Notes under the pieces: model-generated
What the model was told of the DNA's origin: nothing
The model's database searches: none
The model's input: only the letters and a program-made list of their open reading frames with translations
IMG/VR virus record: IMGVR_UViG_2778261223_000025
Coordinates: 1 to 23,900 of that record
DNA length: 23,900 nucleotides
Reading direction: 5' to 3' (one strand)
Source: a virus
Taxonomy: Duplodnaviria > Heunggongvirae > Uroviricota > Caudoviricetes
Position numbers and translations under genes: made by a program
Shown here: one piece after another, positions 2,137 through 23,900 of the stretch
Numbering within the stretch: the stretch's first letter is position 1
Layout: every line of letters begins with the position of its first letter

Positions 2137-2343
2137 CGGCAGTACCGCGAAACAACCCAAGCCAGTAAGTGGGGAAATAACTGAAAGATGAACCTCCAGC
2201 CTTATGGCAAAAAAGATTCTTTGTGGTGGCGGACTGATGGAAAGACATCGGATAGAATAAAACAGTGGCTAGGGTAGCTCCCGAAAAGCGGAATCGTCAC
2301 CGCCAGCCACTGAATCTATGACGAACAACTAGACGAGGTTGAT

Positions 2344-2586
2344 ATGAGTGAAATTGATAAAATAATAAATGGTACATGTAACTTTCAATCAATGCCGCCA
2401 GGTAGTTATGTAAAACAATGTAGTGAAATAGTTAATGGTCAGCTTGTAATGTCAAATGCAGGACGTGGAGTTTCTACGGATGAAAAAAAATCAATAAATG
2501 AAGCCCTATTAAGCATCAATGTTTTTGACTTGTTTCGCCCATCTTGGGTTATTTTGCAAAATAGTAGTCAATTCCCACATTATTGA
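2344..2586 (+). CDS. Hypothetical 80-aa protein, AT-rich moron
   Basis: ORF with a gaggt Shine-Dalgarno-like motif 5 nt upstream of the ATG; visibly AT-rich relative to neighbours; followed by its own terminator; no signal peptide; no family recognised. Confidence 0.5.
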   Translation: MSEIDKIINGTCNFQSMPPGSYVKQCSEIVNGQLVMSNAGRGVSTDEKKSINEALLSINVFDLFRPSWVILQNSSQFPHY

Positions 2587-2604
2587 TAAATTAATTAATA
2601 AATT

Positions 2605-2626
2605 GGTCGCTCAGGCGGCCTTTTTT
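2605..2626 (+). terminator. Rho-independent terminator after the moron ORF
   Basis: Stem ggtcgc/gcggcc (one G-U pair), loop tcag, then TTTTTT. Confidence 0.6.
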
Positions 2627-2733
2627 ATTGCCATCACAAAAGCCATTCCCTACAGAGTGGCTTTGATAATGGCTTATACCCTACACGGGATAACTTAACT
2701 GATATCCCTTTTAACGGATAAACGGAGCCAACA

Positions 2734-2976
2734 ATGGCAGAGATTATTCCCATGACTGAAGAACAGAAATTCCAGTTAGAGATTTACAAGCTGGTCATGA
2801 ACCAGAACGCAGCCGCAGAAGAAGCATTTCAATTCATTGGCACTGACGAACTGAAGCTTGAGCTATTCAAAATTCACTTCCAGTCAGGTGGCGCTAATTC
2901 AGATATCACGACCCGAACTATCGAAGCGGTGCGTAAATCGAAGGAAGCGTTAGACCTGTTCACTACCGGAGCATAA
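2734..2976 (+). CDS. Hypothetical 80-aa protein immediately upstream of the terminase genes
   Basis: ORF with a ggag Shine-Dalgarno-like motif upstream; acidic, helical-looking sequence; P22 has a small ORF of similar size in this position (from memory). Confidence 0.6.
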   Translation: MAEIIPMTEEQKFQLEIYKLVMNQNAAAEEAFQFIGTDELKLELFKIHFQSGGANSDITTRTIEAVRKSKEALDLFTTGA

Positions 2977-3055
2977 ACATGGCAACTCAAGGTTTCGACA
3001 ACCCATCCAAATTCCGCGATGAATGGGATAAGCAAGCAGAAGGGAAATAATCAAT

Positions 3056-10184: not shown

Positions 10185-11603
10185 ATGCCGATTCAGCAAC
10201 TTCCGCTTATGAAAGGTGTCGGCAAAGACTTTCGAAACGCCGACTATATCGACTATCTGCCAGTGAATATGCTGGCTACACCCAAAGAAATCCTGAACAG
10301 CAGCGGATATCTTCGCTCATTCCCTGGCATTGCCAAACGCTCTGATGTGAACGGTGTATCTCGCGGCGTCGAGTACAACATGGCGCAGAATGCTGTTTAT
10401 CGTGTGTGTGGTGGCAAGCTGTACAAAGGAGAAAGTGAAGTCGGTGACGTCGCCGGAAGTGGTCGCGTATCAATGGCGCATGGTCGTACATCTCAGGCGA
10501 TAGGTGTTAATGGTCAACTGGTCGAGTATCGCTATGATGGCACGATTAAAACCGTCTCAAACTGGCCTACAGATAGTGGATTCACTCAGTATGAGCTAGG
10601 TTCGGTTCGTGACATTACGCGCTTACGTGGGCGTTATGCGTGGTCAAAAGACGGCACTGATTCATGGTTTATCACTGATCTTGAAGACGAATCGCATCCT
10701 GACCGCTACAGCGCACAATATCGTGCCGAGTCTCAGCCGGACGGCATCATCGGCATCGGCACATGGAGAGACTTCATCGTCTGCTTTGGTTCATCGACGA
10801 TTGAATATTTCTCCCTGACTGGTGCAACCACCGTTGGTGCTGCTTTGTATGTCGCACAGCCATCACTGATGGTGCAGAAAGGCATTGCCGGGACTTACTG
10901 CAAAACGCCGTTTGCTGACTCGTATGCGTTCATCAGCAATCCGGCAACAGGTGCGCCGTCTGTATACATCATCGGCTCCGGTCAGGTATCACCAATCGCC
11001 AGCGCGAGCATTGAGAAAATACTACGCTCCTACACTGCTGATGAACTGGCTGAAGGCGTGATGGAATCGCTGCGGTTTGATGCGCATGAGTTGCTGATTA
11101 TCCATCTTCCGCGCCATGTTCTCGTATACGACGCATCTTCAAGCGCCAATGGTCCGCAATGGTGTGTATTGAAAACAGGCCTGTATGACGATGTGTACCG
11201 CGCTATCGACTTCATTTACGAAGGCAATCAGATAACGTGCGGCGATAAGCTGGAATCGGTGATCGGGAAATTGCAGTTCGATATCAGCAGCCAGTACGAC
11301 AAGCAACAGGAACACCTGCTGTTTACTCCGTTGTTCAAAGCGGATAACGCCAGATGCTTTGATCTGGAGGTGGAATCATCGACTGGTGTTGCGCAGTATG
11401 CTGACCGCCTGTTCCTCTCTGCAACCACTGACGGCATCAATTACGGTCGTGAGCAGATGATTGAGCAGAATGAACCGTTCGTTTACGACAAACGCGTTTT
11501 GTGGAAGCGAGTTGGGCGCATCAGGAAAAATGTCGGCTTCAAATTGCGCGTTATCACTAAGTCACCTGTCACTCTGTCAGGCTGCCAGATAAGGATTGAG
11601 TAA
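10185..11603 (+). CDS. 10: Tail accessory protein, P22 gp10-type
   Basis: 472 aa (same size as P22 gp10); synteny; ATG immediately follows the upstream stop. Confidence 0.82.
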
Positions 11604-12451
11604 TGGCTGATTCGAATCTCAATGTGCCGGTAATCATTCAGGCTACACGGCTCGACACATCAGTCCTTCCACGCAATATCTTCTCGCAGTCGTATCTGCT
11701 TTACGTTATCGCACAGGGTACTGATGTTGGTAACGTGGCGAACAAAGCCAACGAGGCCGGACAGGGTGCTTATGACGCACAAGTCAGGAACGATGAGCAG
11801 GATGTGATTCTCGCTGACCATGAGCAGCGAATTTCTGCTGCGGAAGCAACGCTTGTTAATCATGAGGAGCGAATCAGCCAGGCAGAATCAACTCTTCAGG
11901 AACATGAAACGCGAATCGCTCAGAATGAAAGCGATATTGCGTCGCTTGATACCAGAGTTCAGTCGCTGGAGTCGCAGGTTTCAGACCATGAATCGCGCAT
12001 CGATTCTCTGGAGTATGCCACTACTCGCAAAAAGTCAGAGGTTGTTTACTCTGGCGTATCTGTAACCATTCCGACAGCGCCGACCAACCTTGTTAGCCTG
12101 CTGAAAACGCTCACGCCGTCATCAGGCTCGTTGGCACCATTCTTCGACACCGTTAACAACAAGATGATTGTGTTCAACGAGAACAAAACCTTGTTCTTCA
12201 AGCTGTCGATCGTCGGGACGTGGCCCAGCGGAACAGCCAACAGGTCAATGCAGCTAACCTTTTCCGGCTCTGTTCCTGACACACTGGTAAGCAGTCGCAA
12301 CTCGGCTACAACAACCGATAACATCCTGTTAGCTACGTTCTTCAGCGTGGATAAAGACGGCTTTCTTGCCACAAATGGCAGCACGTTAACCATCCAGTCA
12401 AATGGTGCGGCGTTTACTGCCACAACTATCAAAATCATTGCGGAGCAGTGA
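11603..12451 (+). CDS. 26: Tail needle protein, gp26-type, with C-terminal knob extension
   Basis: N-terminus ([25 protein letters not shown]...) matches P22 gp26; central heptad-like repeats (DHEQRIS, NHEERIS, EHETRIA, DHESRID); 282 aa versus 233 in P22, with an added beta-rich C-terminus. Confidence 0.85.
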
Positions 12452-16982: not shown

Positions 16983-17366
16983 TTATCTAATGTTGCTGCT
17001 ACTGTTGCATGTGACGGTATTCCCAAATCCTGAATTGCAGTTTGTATATGTGTCAACGCGTGTTGGGTAAGGTTGAGTTATAACAGGCTGGCGCGCTTTT
17101 TGCTCGATCGCTTGCATTGTGTTTACAGCCTGATAATTCAATAAAGCCTGCTGGAATGCTTGGCTTTGTGCTATTTGTTGGGCTTGTTCTTGGCTTTGTA
17201 ATTGAACATAAAGATTCTGAAGCTCAAGTCTTGCCTGTGCGTCACTTATCTTGCCTTGATCGACACCTTGCCCGAGCATCTTCGCAGCAAGGACATACAG
17301 CTTAGGTGTTGGTGCTGATGCCATGCGTGAGTCGTTCTTCACGCTGGCATCAAGGCAATTAGCCAT
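16983..17366 (-). CDS. Hypothetical Q-rich coiled-coil protein, probably a lipoprotein whose signal peptide is encoded upstream of the first ATG
   Basis: 127-aa ORF from the first ATG; the same frame is open upstream to 17507 and encodes (I)KKSLLIIPLLLAG-C, a lipoprotein-type signal peptide, with no in-frame ATG/GTG/TTG; ATA codons at 17478-17480 and 17466-17468. AT-rich. Confidence 0.55.
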   Translation of the reverse strand: MANCLDASVKNDSRMASAPTPKLYVLAAKMLGQGVDQGKISDAQARLELQNLYVQLQSQEQAQQIAQSQAFQQALLNYQAVNTMQAIEQKARQPVITQPYPTRVDTYTNCNSGFGNTVTCNSSSNIR

Positions 17367-17493: not shown

Positions 17494-17808
17494 TTATTTA
17501 TCAGAAGTTAGATTGTAATAATTGGTATAAGCTGAAATTGACTTCTGGCATGCTTCAAGAAATTCCTGTGGATTCATTCCTAGTCTTGCTTGCTCTGTGG
17601 TCAGAAAACGCTGTAAGAACTCATCTCCGCCAGGCATTTTTGTTGATTCTTGAAATGTTGCCATTTGTTTGATTGTGCCGCACATGCCAGCAAATTTCGA
17701 AGTTATCATGAGTTCTTGCAGGCCTTTAAGATCGCCATTATCTGATTTTGGTTTGGCGAAAACTATTGTAGAGAAGAACAATATTAACAAAATAGCGATA
17801 CGTTTCAT
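17494..17808 (-). CDS. Hypothetical small secreted protein with Sec signal peptide
   Basis: 104 aa; N-terminus MKRIAILLILFFSTIVFA followed by KPK; start ATG overlaps the mnt stop (ATGA), implying translational coupling; AT-rich; no family recognised. Confidence 0.6.
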   Translation of the reverse strand: MKRIAILLILFFSTIVFAKPKSDNGDLKGLQELMITSKFAGMCGTIKQMATFQESTKMPGGDEFLQRFLTTEQARLGMNPQEFLEACQKSISAYTNYYNLTSDK

Positions 17809-18373: not shown

Positions 18374-19303
18374 ATGAAAAGTATAGCAACAGCAGTATCT
18401 ACTATCAACGTGCCATTCCACGGCGCAGAGCTTTATGTCGTCAATCACAACGGTGAGCCGTACACCCCAATGAAACCTATCGTTGAAGGTATGGGTATGG
18501 ATTGGGCTTCACAGTTTACGAAAATAAAGCAACGGTTTAAAACCTCCATTGTGAAAATCACAATGCAGCTTCCTGGTGATGAACAGTGCCGTGAGATTAT
18601 TTGTTTGGCACTTCGCAAACTTGCTGGCTGGCTGCAAACCATCAGTCCAAACAAAGTCCGCCCTGAAATCCGCGACAAGGTAATCCAGTATCAGGAAGAG
18701 TGTGACGATGTGCTCTACGAGTACTGGACTAAAGGCCATGTAGTTAACCCACGCAAAGCTAAAAAGGCGTTGCCGGGTAAAATCACCACTGAACAGCAGG
18801 AAGCCATTAAACAACTCGTCATGAGTCGCGGTCAGTCTCTGCCAAAAGAAAAACAGGCGAAGGCAATGATTACCATGTGGTCGTCGCTGAAATCTCATTT
18901 TGGGTGTTCATACAAAGAAATCAGCGATGAGCAGTTTACCGAAGCTCTGTCACTTGCAGCTCGCGTTCCGCTTGAAGGCGAGTTAATCGGCAAACAAGAG
19001 AAGAAAGCAAACGAGCTTTCTGCAAAAGAAGCAAACAGCCTTGTATGGTTATGGGATTATGCCAACCGCTCACAGGCATTATTCCGCGAACTGTATCCGG
19101 CGCTAAAACAAATTCAATCGAACTATTCAGGCAGATGTCATGACTGTGGTTATGAGTTCTCCCGTATTATCGATATGGCGAGAGACGTTTTAATCAATCA
19201 CTCACGAGATGTTGATATCAATGAGCCAGACGGACCAACGAATCTTTCCGCATGGATGAGACTTAAGAATAAAAAATTACCTCCTTCAGTACATAACTAC
19301 TGA
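18374..19303 (+). CDS. ant: Antirepressor Ant
   Basis: 309 aa (P22 Ant about 300); N-terminus has the typical antirepressor look; follows arc and precedes the tailspike as in P22 immI. Confidence 0.8.
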   Translation: MKSIATAVSTINVPFHGAELYVVNHNGEPYTPMKPIVEGMGMDWASQFTKIKQRFKTSIVKITMQLPGDEQCREIICLALRKLAGWLQTISPNKVRPEIRDKVIQYQEECDDVLYEYWTKGHVVNPRKAKKALPGKITTEQQEAIKQLVMSRGQSLPKEKQAKAMITMWSSLKSHFGCSYKEISDEQFTEALSLAARVPLEGELIGKQEKKANELSAKEANSLVWLWDYANRSQALFRELYPALKQIQSNYSGRCHDCGYEFSRIIDMARDVLINHSRDVDINEPDGPTNLSAWMRLKNKKLPPSVHNY

Positions 19304-19321
19304 CAGATAACCAACGCAACG

Positions 19322-19346
19322 ACCCAGCTTCGGCTGGGTTTTTTTA
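19322..19346 (+). terminator. Rho-independent terminator between ant and the tailspike gene
   Basis: Perfect stem acccagc/gctgggt with a cUUCGg tetraloop, then TTTTTTT. Confidence 0.8.
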
Positions 19347-19403
19347 TACCCAAAATTCACCGTAGCCACGCTGCGGCGATTCCTTGCATCTGGAGCAAAT
19401 TAA

Positions 19404-21533
19404 ATGACAGACATTACAGCCAATGTGATTGTATCTATGCCTTCGCAACTCTTCACTATGGCGCGTTCTTTTAAAGCGGTTGCCAATGGCAAAATTTATA
19501 TCGGTAAAATTGACACTGACCCGGTAAATCCTGAAAACCAGATTCAGGTTTATGTGGAGAACGAAGACGGTTCTCACGTTCCTGTTTCGCAACCAATCAT
19601 CATTAACGCTGCTGGATATCCGGTATATAACGGACAGATTGCCAAGTTCGTAACTGAGCAAGGCCATTCCATGGCTGTATATGATGCGTATGGTGCGAAG
19701 CAGTTCTATTTTCCTAATGTGCTGAAGTATGACCCTGACCAATTTCAGTTCACGCTCTCGTCAGACACTGGCGCAAATCTTGTCGGCATCAAGAGAACTG
19801 GACTGCCAAATAATAACTCTACTACTGTTGGTGCTTACTATCAGACAACACCTATCAACGCGGTAACAGATTACGGAATGAAAGGGGATTTCGACCCGTC
19901 AACTGGATTTGTTAACGGAACGAATAACCGTTCTGCACTTCAACAATTGATGGATGATCTGGTAAATATCGGTGGAAACAAAACTGTAACCATTCCTCCG
20001 GGTAACTATTACTTCAACTTTGACGGTAGCACTAATCCTGGTGGTGTTGGGGTTATGTGGGGAAGGGTCGGTGCAGGGTTAAAGAATGTCACATTCCTGT
20101 GCTATGGCGCCACATTTTACTCTGGGAGCATTGGCAGACTTAACGGCATATTCAGCGCTAATTATGGTGTAAGGATAAAAGGCTTGAGAGTGATAGGGTT
20201 CGGCGGCGGAACGCTCGCTCCTTCACGAGAAAGGGATGCTATCTTTGCTCTTGCCTACAACTGCTGTGGGGTAACATTTGATGAGTGTTACTTTGCTAAC
20301 AGCATGGGGGACTGCGTTTATCTTGGTGGCAGTCTTGATGACGGCTCTATAACTGGATTATTTTGCAGGGATATCGCTTTTAATGGCTGTACTTTAAAAG
20401 AAAGATACGGGGATGGTATTAGATCTTACTACAGCGGATCTAGGTCAAGGATGGCTATTGCTGTTATCGACTGCGTTGGTCTCAGGATTGATAACTGCAA
20501 AATAGTAGGCGGAATAGACTTCGAACCAAACGCAACAAACCAGCGCCTGCAGAATATGATGGTAGGTAATACCAGGTTCCATGCAGGAAATGTCCTTGCA
20601 TACACTGGAACAAACCCATTTTACGAGGAGCAAATCAATAGCGGAACTCAGGTTATACGTGGAGACATCCGATTCCAGACGCGAGCGGGTGGGGTCATCA
20701 CTCAGAATATTCATATATCTAACGTATCATTCGACTACGGATGCATCAGGCAGACATCTCTTGGTATAGCTGACGTTATTTATGAAAACATAAGAATGCG
20801 CAGGGGTATATTGGTGGTTGGTTCTGACTCAGGCACAAACTTCAACCCATCTGCAAACTTCAATGATGTTTATGTTGATCTGGCTCTTAACGGTTCAGAT
20901 GATGATATCTTTGAGTTGAATGGGTCAGGCACAACACCTCCTACATTGCCAGCAGTAGTCATGTTGATACAGGGAAATCTTACATACGCAAGATTTAATG
21001 GGATAAGTGGAGGGAATACCATCGGTGCATTTAGTTACCTGTTTTATGCAGATCCAACACACACAGCTGGTGATGCGGGGAGGAGCATTTACGCAAACTG
21101 CAGCATACTTGGCGGTAACCTTTACAACTACACTATCCCGGATAGCAGTCAGGAACTTGGAAACACATCTATGCCAGCCTCCGGAGTTGCCTTTACAAAA
21201 TACCGTAGGATTAATACTGACCTAATCATGCAGTCGGTTGGTGCTCTAAGCATATCCGCAAGCGGTTCAATAGACTGGAACGCATTCAGAACAAGCAAAT
21301 TGGCAGTAACTGCTACCACTACAGGCCTGCAAATATCAGGGATTGTTAATGGCCCTATGGTTGGTGCTGAGGTTCAGATAAGGAATAGTGGATCAAACCC
21401 CATAATTCTGGCTCACAGTACATCTTTCTATCTTAAAGGAACAACTAGTGCCACCCTTGACGATACGAGAAAGGTGGTGACGTTCCAGTACATCTCTTCA
21501 GGAGTATGGACGGAGATATACCGGAACTTTTAA
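19404..21533 (+). CDS. 9: Tailspike protein with P22-type N-terminal head-binding domain and a divergent receptor-binding domain
   Basis: 709 aa; the first roughly 110 residues match the conserved P22/HK620 tailspike N-terminus from memory; the rest is G/N/S/T-rich, consistent with a beta-helix, and differs from the P22 and HK620 domains I can recall. Confidence 0.9.
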
Positions 21534-21574
21534 TCAGTGTCCATGGATGGCCATCTTTCACCAGTTATCTTCAT
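21530..21574 (-). pseudogene. gtrB: gtrB remnant: 14-codon stub beginning MKI, ending on the tailspike stop codon
   Basis: Minus-strand ATG overlaps the gtrA stop (ATGA), the normal gtrA-gtrB junction; encodes [14 protein letters not shown] then TAA, which shares bases with the plus-strand tailspike TAA. Confidence 0.5.
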
Positions 21575-21935
21575 TTCCCATCCCTAAAGACAATGAACTT
21601 TTAATAGACGAAACCGCACACCAGACTGATGGCGGAGAAGGTGATAAGAGTGACAATTGGAGGAAGTGCGCATCTATCAGCAGCCCATCCAATAGTAGCA
21701 CTCAGTGTCCCCATGAACCCGACATATAACATGTAGCGCATCGTTGTAGTCGATGTTTTGAATGTGAATCTTGCATTCGCGAAGAAGCTAAAGCTCACAG
21801 CCACAACGAAACCTGCGAAGTTTGCCAAAGCCTGATTGGTATGCTCGGCATAGATACATACACCAAAAACCACCCAGTGTATAAGTGTGTTCAGCACACC
21901 AATCGAGGTGTGTACTTTGCAAATAGCTTTAACAT
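21571..21935 (-). pseudogene. gtrA: gtrA (bactoprenol-glucose flippase) pseudogene with frameshift and premature stop
   Basis: ATG at 21935 gives MLKLFAKYT then stop after 14 codons; GtrA continues (SIGVLNTLIHWVVFG...) in another frame after a 1-nt insertion in an acacacc run; in-frame TAA at 21601-21603 is followed by 9 sense codons (KFIVFRDGK) up to the ATGA junction; repaired length about 120 codons. Confidence 0.72.
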
Positions 21936-22400
21936 TTCTTATATCAGGTAATAATCAAAGTCATGAAGTCTATCATCCAAGTCTCAATCGATCGATGACT
22001 TGCTGTGGTTGATGAGACAAAACTGATGCACACAAAGCTTTGCGCTGGATTGCAAGGCTTTGTACTCTTCGATAGTGGTTAAGGCGGTTCACTCCACCTT
22101 TTCATCAATCCAGTCCGCCCACCACTGCATCATTTCTCTGCGCTTATCGTGGCAGATGCCTCACTATCACACGGTGATGGTTCATTACTGGTTTGCATAA
22201 TGGATAGAGAACTGAGGATAAAAGATATCCCAAAACCCAAAAATCTCATCTTTAGGATTTGCAGAAAGGGAGGCGTGAACAAATACCTGCGCATGAAAAC
22301 GGAACTAGTCCAGATGTGATGTTTGTGGTGATCACATACATCATTAACGATGCTCGTTATGGTGAGTTTGATGATTACCCACTGAAGTGAAAATTGTGTT

Positions 22401-22424: not shown

Positions 22425-22727
22425 AAAATCACAAATCATGAAACCCTTGTTCATGGCGGTTCTCAGGGGTGTTGCGCGTAATCGTGAAACAAAAAGGTAG
22501 ATTGTTGCTTACCGTCATTCATCATTAGGTTAAATCCGTTATTTCTGCTATCTGCCAGAGTATCAAATATCACCGTGCTAATCAGCTTTAGCGCGACAAT
22601 TTGACAGCGAGTGGCAACAAATCATGTCAGATAAAAATGAGAGGGTAGTCACATTTTCTTGCACTTTATTCCAGCCAGTTCATAAGTATTTCCGTAAAAA
22701 GAACAGCTATTTGAAACTCCTGAGGGT

Positions 22728-23900
22728 TTGCTGTTGAAACGCCGTCTTATTATTGCTGCTTCTTTGTTCGTTTTTAACTTATCGTCTGGTTTTGCGGCGG
22801 AAAACATTCCTTTTTCACCTCAGCCTCCAGAGATTCATGCCGGGTCCTGGGTATTGATGGATTACACCACCGGTCAGATTCTCACCGCGGGTAATGAGCA
22901 TCAACAGCGCAATCCCGCCAGCCTGACAAAGCTGATGACGGGCTATGTCGTGGATCGCGCTATCGATAGTCATCGCATTACGCCAGACGATATTGTCACC
23001 GTGGGGCGCGATGCGTGGGCGAAAGATAATCCGGTGTTTGTCGGTTCTTCACTGATGTTTTTGAAAGAGGGCGATCGCGTATCGGTACGTGATTTAAGCC
23101 GTGGTTTAATTGTGGATTCCGGAAATGACGCTTGTGTTGCTCTGGCTGACTATATTGCCGGTGGGCAACGGCAGTTTGTTGAAATGATGAACAACTATGC
23201 CGAGAAGCTGCATCTCAAGGATACGCATTTTGAAACAGTGCATGGTCTGGATGCACCTGGCCAGCATAGCTCGGCTTATGATTTAGCCGTGCTTTCTCGC
23301 GCTATCATCCACGGCGAGCCCGAGTTTTATCATATGTACAGTGAGAAAAGCCTCACCTGGAACGGTATCACCCAGCAAAACCGTAACGGGTTATTGTGGG
23401 ATAAGACCATGAATGTTGACGGCCTGAAAACGGGTCATACTTCTGGTGCCGGGTTTAATCTTATTGCTTCGGCTGTAGACGGGCAGCGTCGCCTCATTGC
23501 AGTGGTAATGGGTGCTGACAGCGCAAAAGGTCGTGAGGAAGAGGCAAGAAAATTACTGCGTTGGGGGCAACAAAACTTTACTACGGTGCAAATTTTGCAC
23601 CGTGGGAAAAAGGTCGGAACGGAACGCATCTGGTATGGCGATAAAGAAAATATCGACCTGGGAACGGAACAAGAGTTCTGGATGGTGCTACCGAAAGCCG
23701 AAATTCCACATATCAAAGCCAAATATACCCTTGATGGTAAAGAACTCACCGCGCCAATTAGCGCCCATCAGCGGGTAGGGGAAATTGAACTTTACGACCG
23801 TGATAAACAGGTGGCGCACTGGCCGCTGGTTACCCTGGAATCTGTCGGGGAAGGCAGCATGTTTTCCCGCCTGAGTGATTATTTCCACCATAAGGCCTGA
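22728..23900 (+). CDS. dacD: D-alanyl-D-alanine carboxypeptidase DacD (PBP6b), host gene
   Basis: 390-aa ORF recognised as E. coli DacD, with signal peptide and SxxK motif (ASLTKLMT); the track start is a TTG at 22728 and a TTG at 22734 (MKRR...) is an alternative; stop at 23898-23900. Confidence 0.93.
   Translation: MLLKRRLIIAASLFVFNLSSGFAAENIPFSPQPPEIHAGSWVLMDYTTGQILTAGNEHQQRNPASLTKLMTGYVVDRAIDSHRITPDDIVTVGRDAWAKDNPVFVGSSLMFLKEGDRVSVRDLSRGLIVDSGNDACVALADYIAGGQRQFVEMMNNYAEKLHLKDTHFETVHGLDAPGQHSSAYDLAVLSRAIIHGEPEFYHMYSEKSLTWNGITQQNRNGLLWDKTMNVDGLKTGHTSGAGFNLIASAVDGQRRLIAVVMGADSAKGREEEARKLLRWGQQNFTTVQILHRGKKVGTERIWYGDKENIDLGTEQEFWMVLPKAEIPHIKAKYTLDGKELTAPISAHQRVGEIELYDRDKQVAHWPLVTLESVGEGSMFSRLSDYFHHKA

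Follow-up and report, generated by a model that had tools for sequence, protein, structure and literature searches.

The window analysed here, a stretch of 23,900 nucleotides, comprises the late region of an E. coli prophage that is P22-like (Lederbergvirus-type). The genes upstream of the tailspike encode Rha, the gp3 and gp2 terminase proteins, the P22-type portal, coat, gp4 and gp10, followed by an Sf6-type needle with a knob, gp7, gp20, gp16, Arc-family (mnt/arc-like) regulators and Ant. The virion genes present in the window are without exception intact, with matches to P22-type families, and the tailspike gene is the last gene of the virion module after mnt/arc/ant, as in the P22-type gp9 class.

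Several further features of this region were recorded. The tail needle (gp26 equivalent, 282 aa; positions 11603-12451) is of the Sf6 type, with the C-terminal knob PF16532 (E 1.9e-115), and not of the P22 type. A low-GC stretch (positions 2137-3055, GC 0.42-0.43) separates the rha-like gene from the small terminase gene; its ORFs are all small (2344-2586 and 2734-2976, each of 80 aa). In addition, two leftward ORFs on the minus strand (16983-17366 and 17494-17808, encoding 127 and 104 aa) are located between gp16 and the Arc/Mnt-like genes at the position of sieA/hkc in P22. Neither has a match in Pfam, and the first is 161 aa long in sibling prophages.

The tailspike gene itself (positions 19404-21533, plus strand) is one intact ORF with an ATG start, encoding 709 aa, stop codon included in the interval. 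A GGAG ribosome-binding site, read directly in the sequence, is present 9 nucleotides 5′ of the ATG (19391-19394, plus strand), and a pattern scan revealed a terminator-like hairpin with an 8-bp stem and a T run (19321-19340, plus strand) between the tailspike gene and the antirepressor gene ant (18374-19303; PF10547/PF10548), which lies 5′ of the hairpin. The identical protein is already deposited at NCBI (WP_244572155.1/STE71519.1, 'phage head-binding domain-containing protein [Escherichia coli]') and sits in a 90% cluster of 26 sequences. It was found on 12 contigs that were read, the six shown as loci deriving from six different assemblies or sequencing runs, and several draft assemblies carry the exact protein in the same sbcB/dacD prophage. 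This recurrence of an identical protein on 12 contigs argues that the tailspike is maintained.

On the 3′ side of the gene, a spacer of about 30 nucleotides unique to the lineage (21534-21563, without strand assignment) forms the right end of a foreign segment, as indicated by alignment with EC50 and by a megablast match that starts at query position 30. Homology to E. coli resumes 30 nucleotides 3′ of the stop codon, at the very start of gtrB (within three codons). A comparison with the intact gtrA-gtrB-gtrC (yfdG/yfdH) genes of EC50 by alignment shows that only the start codon and about three codons of gtrB are left as a stub (21564-21574, minus strand), followed by a gtrA pseudogene (21571-21935, minus strand) in which alignment and translation reveal an insertion of 2 bp close to the 5′-end together with a premature stop (TCA to TAA). 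The locus lacks gtrC and everything else of gtrB; the O-antigen glucosylation module (gtr) of the prophage has decayed.

The right junction of prophage and chromosome (attR region) was located by alignment with K-12 MG1655. The prophage is inserted in the 5′-end of sbcB, after codon 16 (sbcB 5′-end with its first 16 codons, 22476-22525, minus strand), next to dacD, which forms the chromosomal flank (22728-23900, plus strand; megablast and annotation). We also considered that the prophage might end at the junction 30 nucleotides past the stop codon. This was ruled out, since homology to K-12 begins only at position 22476, and the gtr remnant is for the same reason prophage DNA. The O-antigen gene cluster lies beyond the prophage of about 40 kb, on the sbcB side.

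The decay of the adjoining gtr genes, with gtrB and gtrC deleted and gtrA a pseudogene, could be taken to mean that the spike gene is likewise a non-functional leftover of a defective prophage, or that its product is a spike that binds without enzymatic activity. We consider this very unlikely. The ORF is full length and preceded by a ribosome-binding site, the protein recurs unchanged on the contigs mentioned above and has the same length as its relatives, and the virion genes of the window are all intact. Moreover, residues of catalytic type in the spike, described below, stay invariant in the family down to 28% identity.

The N-terminal part of the protein, residues 1-114 (19404-19745, plus strand), is the head-binding (tail-hub attachment) domain and represents the conserved left flank of the swapped segment. 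PF09008 (Head_binding) spans residues 1-113 with an E-value of 3.5e-65 in the Pfam search, and a sequence search of the PDB matched residues 1-116 to the tailspikes of Sf6 and P22 and to related tailspikes, the alignment with Sf6 extending weakly to residue 218. The domain shares about 96% identity with HK620 and Sf6 and about 70% with P22. In line with these values, BLASTP against HK620 gp9 showed near-identity through 'KYDPDQF' (residue 114), then faint gapped similarity to residue 293, then nothing. These matches, like the absences described below, are statistically strong and not a product of chance; the matches bear out the sequence-only reading of this DNA, which had taken the N-terminus for the conserved capsid-attachment domain. 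As such a domain, residues 1-114 plug the spike onto the tail hub.

The left swap junction lies directly after codon 114. Among 5,426 complete E. coli genomes, 1,131 match the 5′-part of the gene with 90-97% nucleotide identity, and in the matches listed the similarity stops at nucleotides 335-345 of the gene in all but H41, where it stops at nucleotide 368. The remaining 1.8 kb of the gene, and thus the module, had no match in these 5,426 genomes by megablast or by sensitive blastn; the first ~340 nucleotides alone were found. Furthermore, a sibling prophage in EC17GD31 is 97.4% identical to the window across gp16 to ant and the head-binding region. Its spike, however, is an unrelated protein of 825 aa that diverges at the same codon, and the two sequences rejoin only at about position 22012. 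A different spike at the same junction therefore provides direct evidence of cassette exchange at the domain boundary. Together with the occurrence of the module on three or more further types of N-terminal anchor (see below), it substantiates the earlier suggestion of horizontal swapping at this point.

The foreign segment begins with a linker of residues 115-150 (19746-19853, plus strand), where the homology to HK620 and to the sibling prophage collapses. The 595 residues from residue 115 onwards matched no solved structure by sequence, neither with phmmer nor with a family profile searched against the PDB. Likewise, the module matched no PHROG or NCBIfam model and no characterised spike in BFVD. 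A characterised tailspike with high identity over the full length, or over the receptor-binding domain, was looked for in the PDB, 50,697 phage records, PHROGs, NCBIfam and BFVD, and none was found; homology to the catalytic β-helix of P22 gp9, Sf6 gp14 or HK620 gp9 was not detected either. An hhalign comparison with HK620 gave weak similarity in the cap that ends at residue ~300-305, before the HK620 active site (D339/E372). Because the profile alignment stops short of this site, no catalytic equivalence to HK620 is drawn.

The Pfam searches of the protein were similarly sparse, and no catalytic family reached the threshold. PF25692 (Phage_depo_C) scored 21.4-21.9 bits on the C-terminus, under its cutoff of 25 bits, and is matched by 12 of 23 relatives (best E 1.9e-6). 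PF12708 (Pect-lyase_RHGA_epim) did not match the tailspike at E ≤ 0.1, whereas four of the 23 family members match it (best E 1.6e-5); the PF12708-like N-terminal cap motif in the module is a variant carrying an insertion (16 protein letters not shown). The sequence-only reading had stated that the roughly 600 residues behind the anchor resemble neither the P22 nor the HK620 receptor-binding domain. This proved correct for the 595 residues, which by sequence are also unlike Sf6. Its description of the domain as unrecognised stands in that the domain is uncharacterised, but not in that it is unrecorded, the identical protein being deposited as WP_244572155.1.

Structure prediction and structural comparison, both proposed in that reading, were performed. 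An AlphaFold2 model of the monomer, built on 32 sequences, has a mean pLDDT of 80, with values of about 90 across residues 150-700 and low values in the linker (residues 107-139). The part assigned to the foreign linker (residues 115-150) is flexible, with a pLDDT of 41-53. The model shows a long right-handed parallel β-helix from about residue 150 to 580, as in the receptor-binding domains of the gp9 class, followed by a C-terminal β-sandwich of residues 583-709 (21150-21533, plus strand; all-beta by DSSP, pLDDT about 85-92), which contains the conserved tail (..W.E..RNF) and the stop codon.

The best structural neighbours of the model were the A-module of the AlgE4 epimerase (score 31.4 over 331 residues, 2.5 Å) and the polysaccharide lyase RbmB (30.3), followed by an alginate epimerase/lyase (29.6), a plant polygalacturonase (28.8) and a K5 lyase (28.7). 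Members of the hydrolase families GH110 and GH87 scored 28.3 and 28.0, and among phage spikes an Acinetobacter phage spike reached 27.8, Det7 26.0, HK620 24.2 and 9NA 22.8. The sequence identity to these neighbours is 7-18%. Taken together, the module is predicted with high confidence to adopt a right-handed parallel β-helix of the polysaccharide-depolymerase type, in agreement with the fold anticipated from the sequence. The tailspike gene hence joins a P22-type anchor to a rare β-helix module, a mosaic of a type that is ordinary in phages.

The conservation within the module is uneven. Residues 117-376 share 51-79% identity in 20 of the 22 aligned relatives, with two outliers at 45% and 36%. 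They include the conserved half of the β-helix (residues 151-376; 19854-20531, plus strand), which comprises the PF12708-like cap and a charged stack and is modelled with a pLDDT of 87-98. In contrast, the distal β-helix and the start of the C-terminal domain (residues 377-656; 20532-21371, plus strand) are variable. Identity in residues 421-656 is mostly 15-53% among relatives, and outside the 90% cluster it amounts to 12-65% in residues 421-600 and 601-656 (57% at most beyond the relative P0002), before it recovers in the last ~50 residues. Even in the relative P0001, which is 95% identical, most differences are concentrated in residues 377-600.

The module itself is bipartite, as the E. marmotae copy illustrates with 79% identity in residues 117-376 and 31-36% in residues 421-656. 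Two causes come into question, diversifying selection or a second zone of recombination inside the module.

Invariant or near-invariant residues of the family are R275, D278, N299, D303, Y306, E333, R334, R340, S341, R347, S348, R349, D356, D372, E374, N376, Q380 and E409. The invariant charged residues are spaced by 16-35 residues, that is, by roughly one coil of the helix. Judging from this pattern, the charged and polar residues of the conserved half may line a catalytic groove, and a candidate catalytic centre would comprise D303, E333/R334, D356, D372-x-E374-x-N376 and E409, each about one coil apart. The poorly conserved distal half (residues 377-656) is predicted to be the specificity part and would probably set which glycan is recognised.

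We also asked whether the spike could be a member of the AlgE family. The A-module has a superposable β-helix fold. The catalytic motif of AlgE-type enzymes is YG(F/I)DPH(D/E). There is no 'DPH' in the 709-aa tailspike sequence, the nearest conserved motif being (Y/V)G(E/G)ID(L/F)EPN, and a family profile search of the PDB gave no sequence-level match to AlgE4. Membership in the AlgE epimerase family was therefore rejected, since the similarity is confined to the fold and extends neither to the motif nor to the sequence.

Apart from this family, the module might still be a polysaccharide lyase or a lyase/epimerase-like enzyme that acts by β-elimination on a glycan that contains uronic acids or is otherwise acidic, and not a glycoside hydrolase of the kind found in P22, Sf6 and HK620. 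The identity of the best structural neighbours and the conserved arginines are consistent with such an enzyme. However, hydrolases score nearly as high, carboxylates are abundant, and the module contains neither an invariant Lys or His nor the 'DPH' motif. We regard a lyase as a serious but lesser possibility and favour a hydrolase, at a little better than even probability.

The module is rare. A word-indexed search among 5.8 billion proteins returned 20 clusters, and when 1.84 billion representatives were searched exhaustively with a profile, 80 matched at E ≤ 1e-30, about 65 of them via the module and the rest via the anchor columns. Relatives on other anchors were found in prophages of E. 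marmotae, Obesumbacterium, Enterobacter and Pseudomonas and in two T1-like coliphages. The anchor PF18668 carries the module in E. marmotae, Obesumbacterium, Enterobacter and Leclercia; in siphovirus-like prophages of Pseudomonas aeruginosa it stands on a different anchor directly 3′ of a GpJ-like gene; and in the T1-like coliphages TR1 and IME542 it is attached to long anchors. An Obesumbacterium copy on the head-binding anchor (P0003) is 72-75% identical to the PF18668-anchored copies P0010-12 and 50% identical to the E. coli copy. The identity of the module thus tracks host or subtype, not the anchor. Functional characterisation of a member of the module family was not found in the literature.

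The loci of some relatives merit description. The relative P0002 (70% identical; locus L012, a contig from Logan SRR19115553) sits in a P22-like virion module with a 998-aa SLT-domain ejection protein, and genes for SSB, ERF, helicase and primase are located directly 3′ of the spike, a genome organisation unlike that of the prophage in the window. In a survey of species-representative genomes the module was present at one locus, NZ_VSMK01000220.1 (L016, 'Nitratidesulfovibrio liaohensis' NODE_2), with 40% identity. This contig has a length of 46,669 bp, compared with 46,553 bp for the T1-like coliphage IME542, and probably represents a coliphage contaminant in the 'Nitratidesulfovibrio' assembly.

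The spike of a P. aeruginosa prophage (CP169522.1; locus L010, 10001-12160) is chimeric in composition: GC3 is 0.74 in the anchor and 0.75-0.82 in the neighbouring genes, but 0.41 in the module, while enteric copies of the module have a GC3 of 0.36-0.42. The GC content falls at about nucleotides 400-800 within the gene and is restored immediately behind it, so that both changes coincide exactly with the borders of the module. Where similarity to the window copy is detectable, nucleotide identity is only 65-69%. The composition and this nucleotide identity together suggest that the Pseudomonas phages imported the module from a low-GC phage gene pool and not from the lineage of the window. One could go further and regard the module as the founder of a new family of carbohydrate-active enzymes, perhaps of the lyase type for acidic surface glycans, which moves between phages of different bacterial orders; a sequence link to a solved or curated catalytic family was not found. 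We consider this rather doubtful; if true, characterising the module would extend the depolymerase toolbox by one specificity and perhaps by a new mechanism, and it would document an exchange of receptor-binding modules from Enterobacterales to Pseudomonas.

In the E. marmotae prophage (locus L013, 10212-13395) two Acyl_transf_3 genes are located directly 3′ of the gene for the related spike and resemble a module for lysogenic conversion (glycan O-acetylation), analogous to gtr.

Which glycan the spike would act on can be approached from its genomic neighbours and from the hosts of its relatives. O-antigen is the target of most characterised P22-type spikes. By analogy, it is probably the target here as well, because the gtr remnant adjoins the spike and the Acyl_transf_3 genes adjoin its relative in E. 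marmotae. On the other hand, the nearest phage homologues, in TR1 and IME542 (40% identity), belong to phages whose hosts are rough BL21(DE3) strains, an LPS mutant among them, so that the module family is not necessarily tied to O-antigen. The target might accordingly be a surface glycan of a different kind, for example a capsule (K antigen), colanic acid or some other exopolysaccharide, as would befit structural neighbours that act on exopolysaccharides and capsules; in the P22-like phage CUS-3 the spike attached to this head-binding domain is an endosialidase. We nevertheless consider a target other than O-antigen somewhat unlikely, given the record of the characterised P22-type spikes and the neighbouring gtr and acyltransferase genes, which are of a kind typical of O-antigen conversion, whereas a homologue with 40% identity, as in TR1, says little about specificity.

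Taken together, the gene very probably encodes a two-module gp9-equivalent tailspike that most likely cleaves a host surface polysaccharide, most likely O-antigen. By analogy with characterised P22-type spikes, it is most likely a trimeric enzyme that both binds and destroys the receptor: the trimeric spike would bind and cleave the repeating surface polysaccharide of the host, and this cleavage would bring the virion down to the outer membrane.

The receptor-binding modules of tailspikes decide which strains a phage infects, and they are used as serotyping reagents, targeted antimicrobials and glycan-degrading enzymes. For instance, a tailocin has been retargeted to O104:H4 by using a prophage spike (PMC3303846). 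Assigning the target of the present module would add one glycan specificity. Swapping at the boundary of head-binding and receptor-binding domains is textbook knowledge, to which our analysis adds an instance and not a concept; its contribution is the description of a rare module that is confidently modelled, with its junctions defined and a candidate active site proposed from conservation.

The A-module of the mannuronan C5-epimerase AlgE4 (2PYG) and the Vibrio cholerae lyase RbmB (9OZD) are 12-15% identical to the module, show no sequence relationship to it that could be detected, are not phage proteins and lack both the anchor and the C-terminal sandwich; furthermore, the module has no invariant lysine at the equivalent of RbmB K227. 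The 'tail fiber proteins' of TR1 (UVD31764.1) and vB_EcoS_IME542, T1-like coliphages of the genus Christensenvirus (Drexlerviridae), were the only records with a homologous module among the 50,697 phage records. They are 40% identical to the tailspike of the window across residues 120-709 (E 3e-132) and share its conserved motifs and C-terminal tail, but they carry a different anchor, of 220 residues, and form a lateral spike on a siphovirus. In the paper on TR1 the homologue is annotated merely as 'tail fiber'.

The accessions of the tailspike did not occur in the literature full text or in those supplements of Pas et al. (2023; PMC10408124) that were examined, and no phage of high identity was found among the 50,697 phage records; as far as these sources go, the spike therefore falls outside the 14 serogroup-assigned subtypes described there. 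That study describes E. coli phage subtypes in which a conserved anchor is combined with a receptor-binding domain that is exchanged horizontally and follows the glycan of the host, the same modular principle as in the tailspike of the window. The tailspikes HK620 gp9, Sf6 gp14 and P22 gp9 occupy the same gene position after ant and share the same plan of anchor, linker, right-handed β-helix and C-terminal domain, the HK620 spike comprising 710 aa and that of the window 709 aa.
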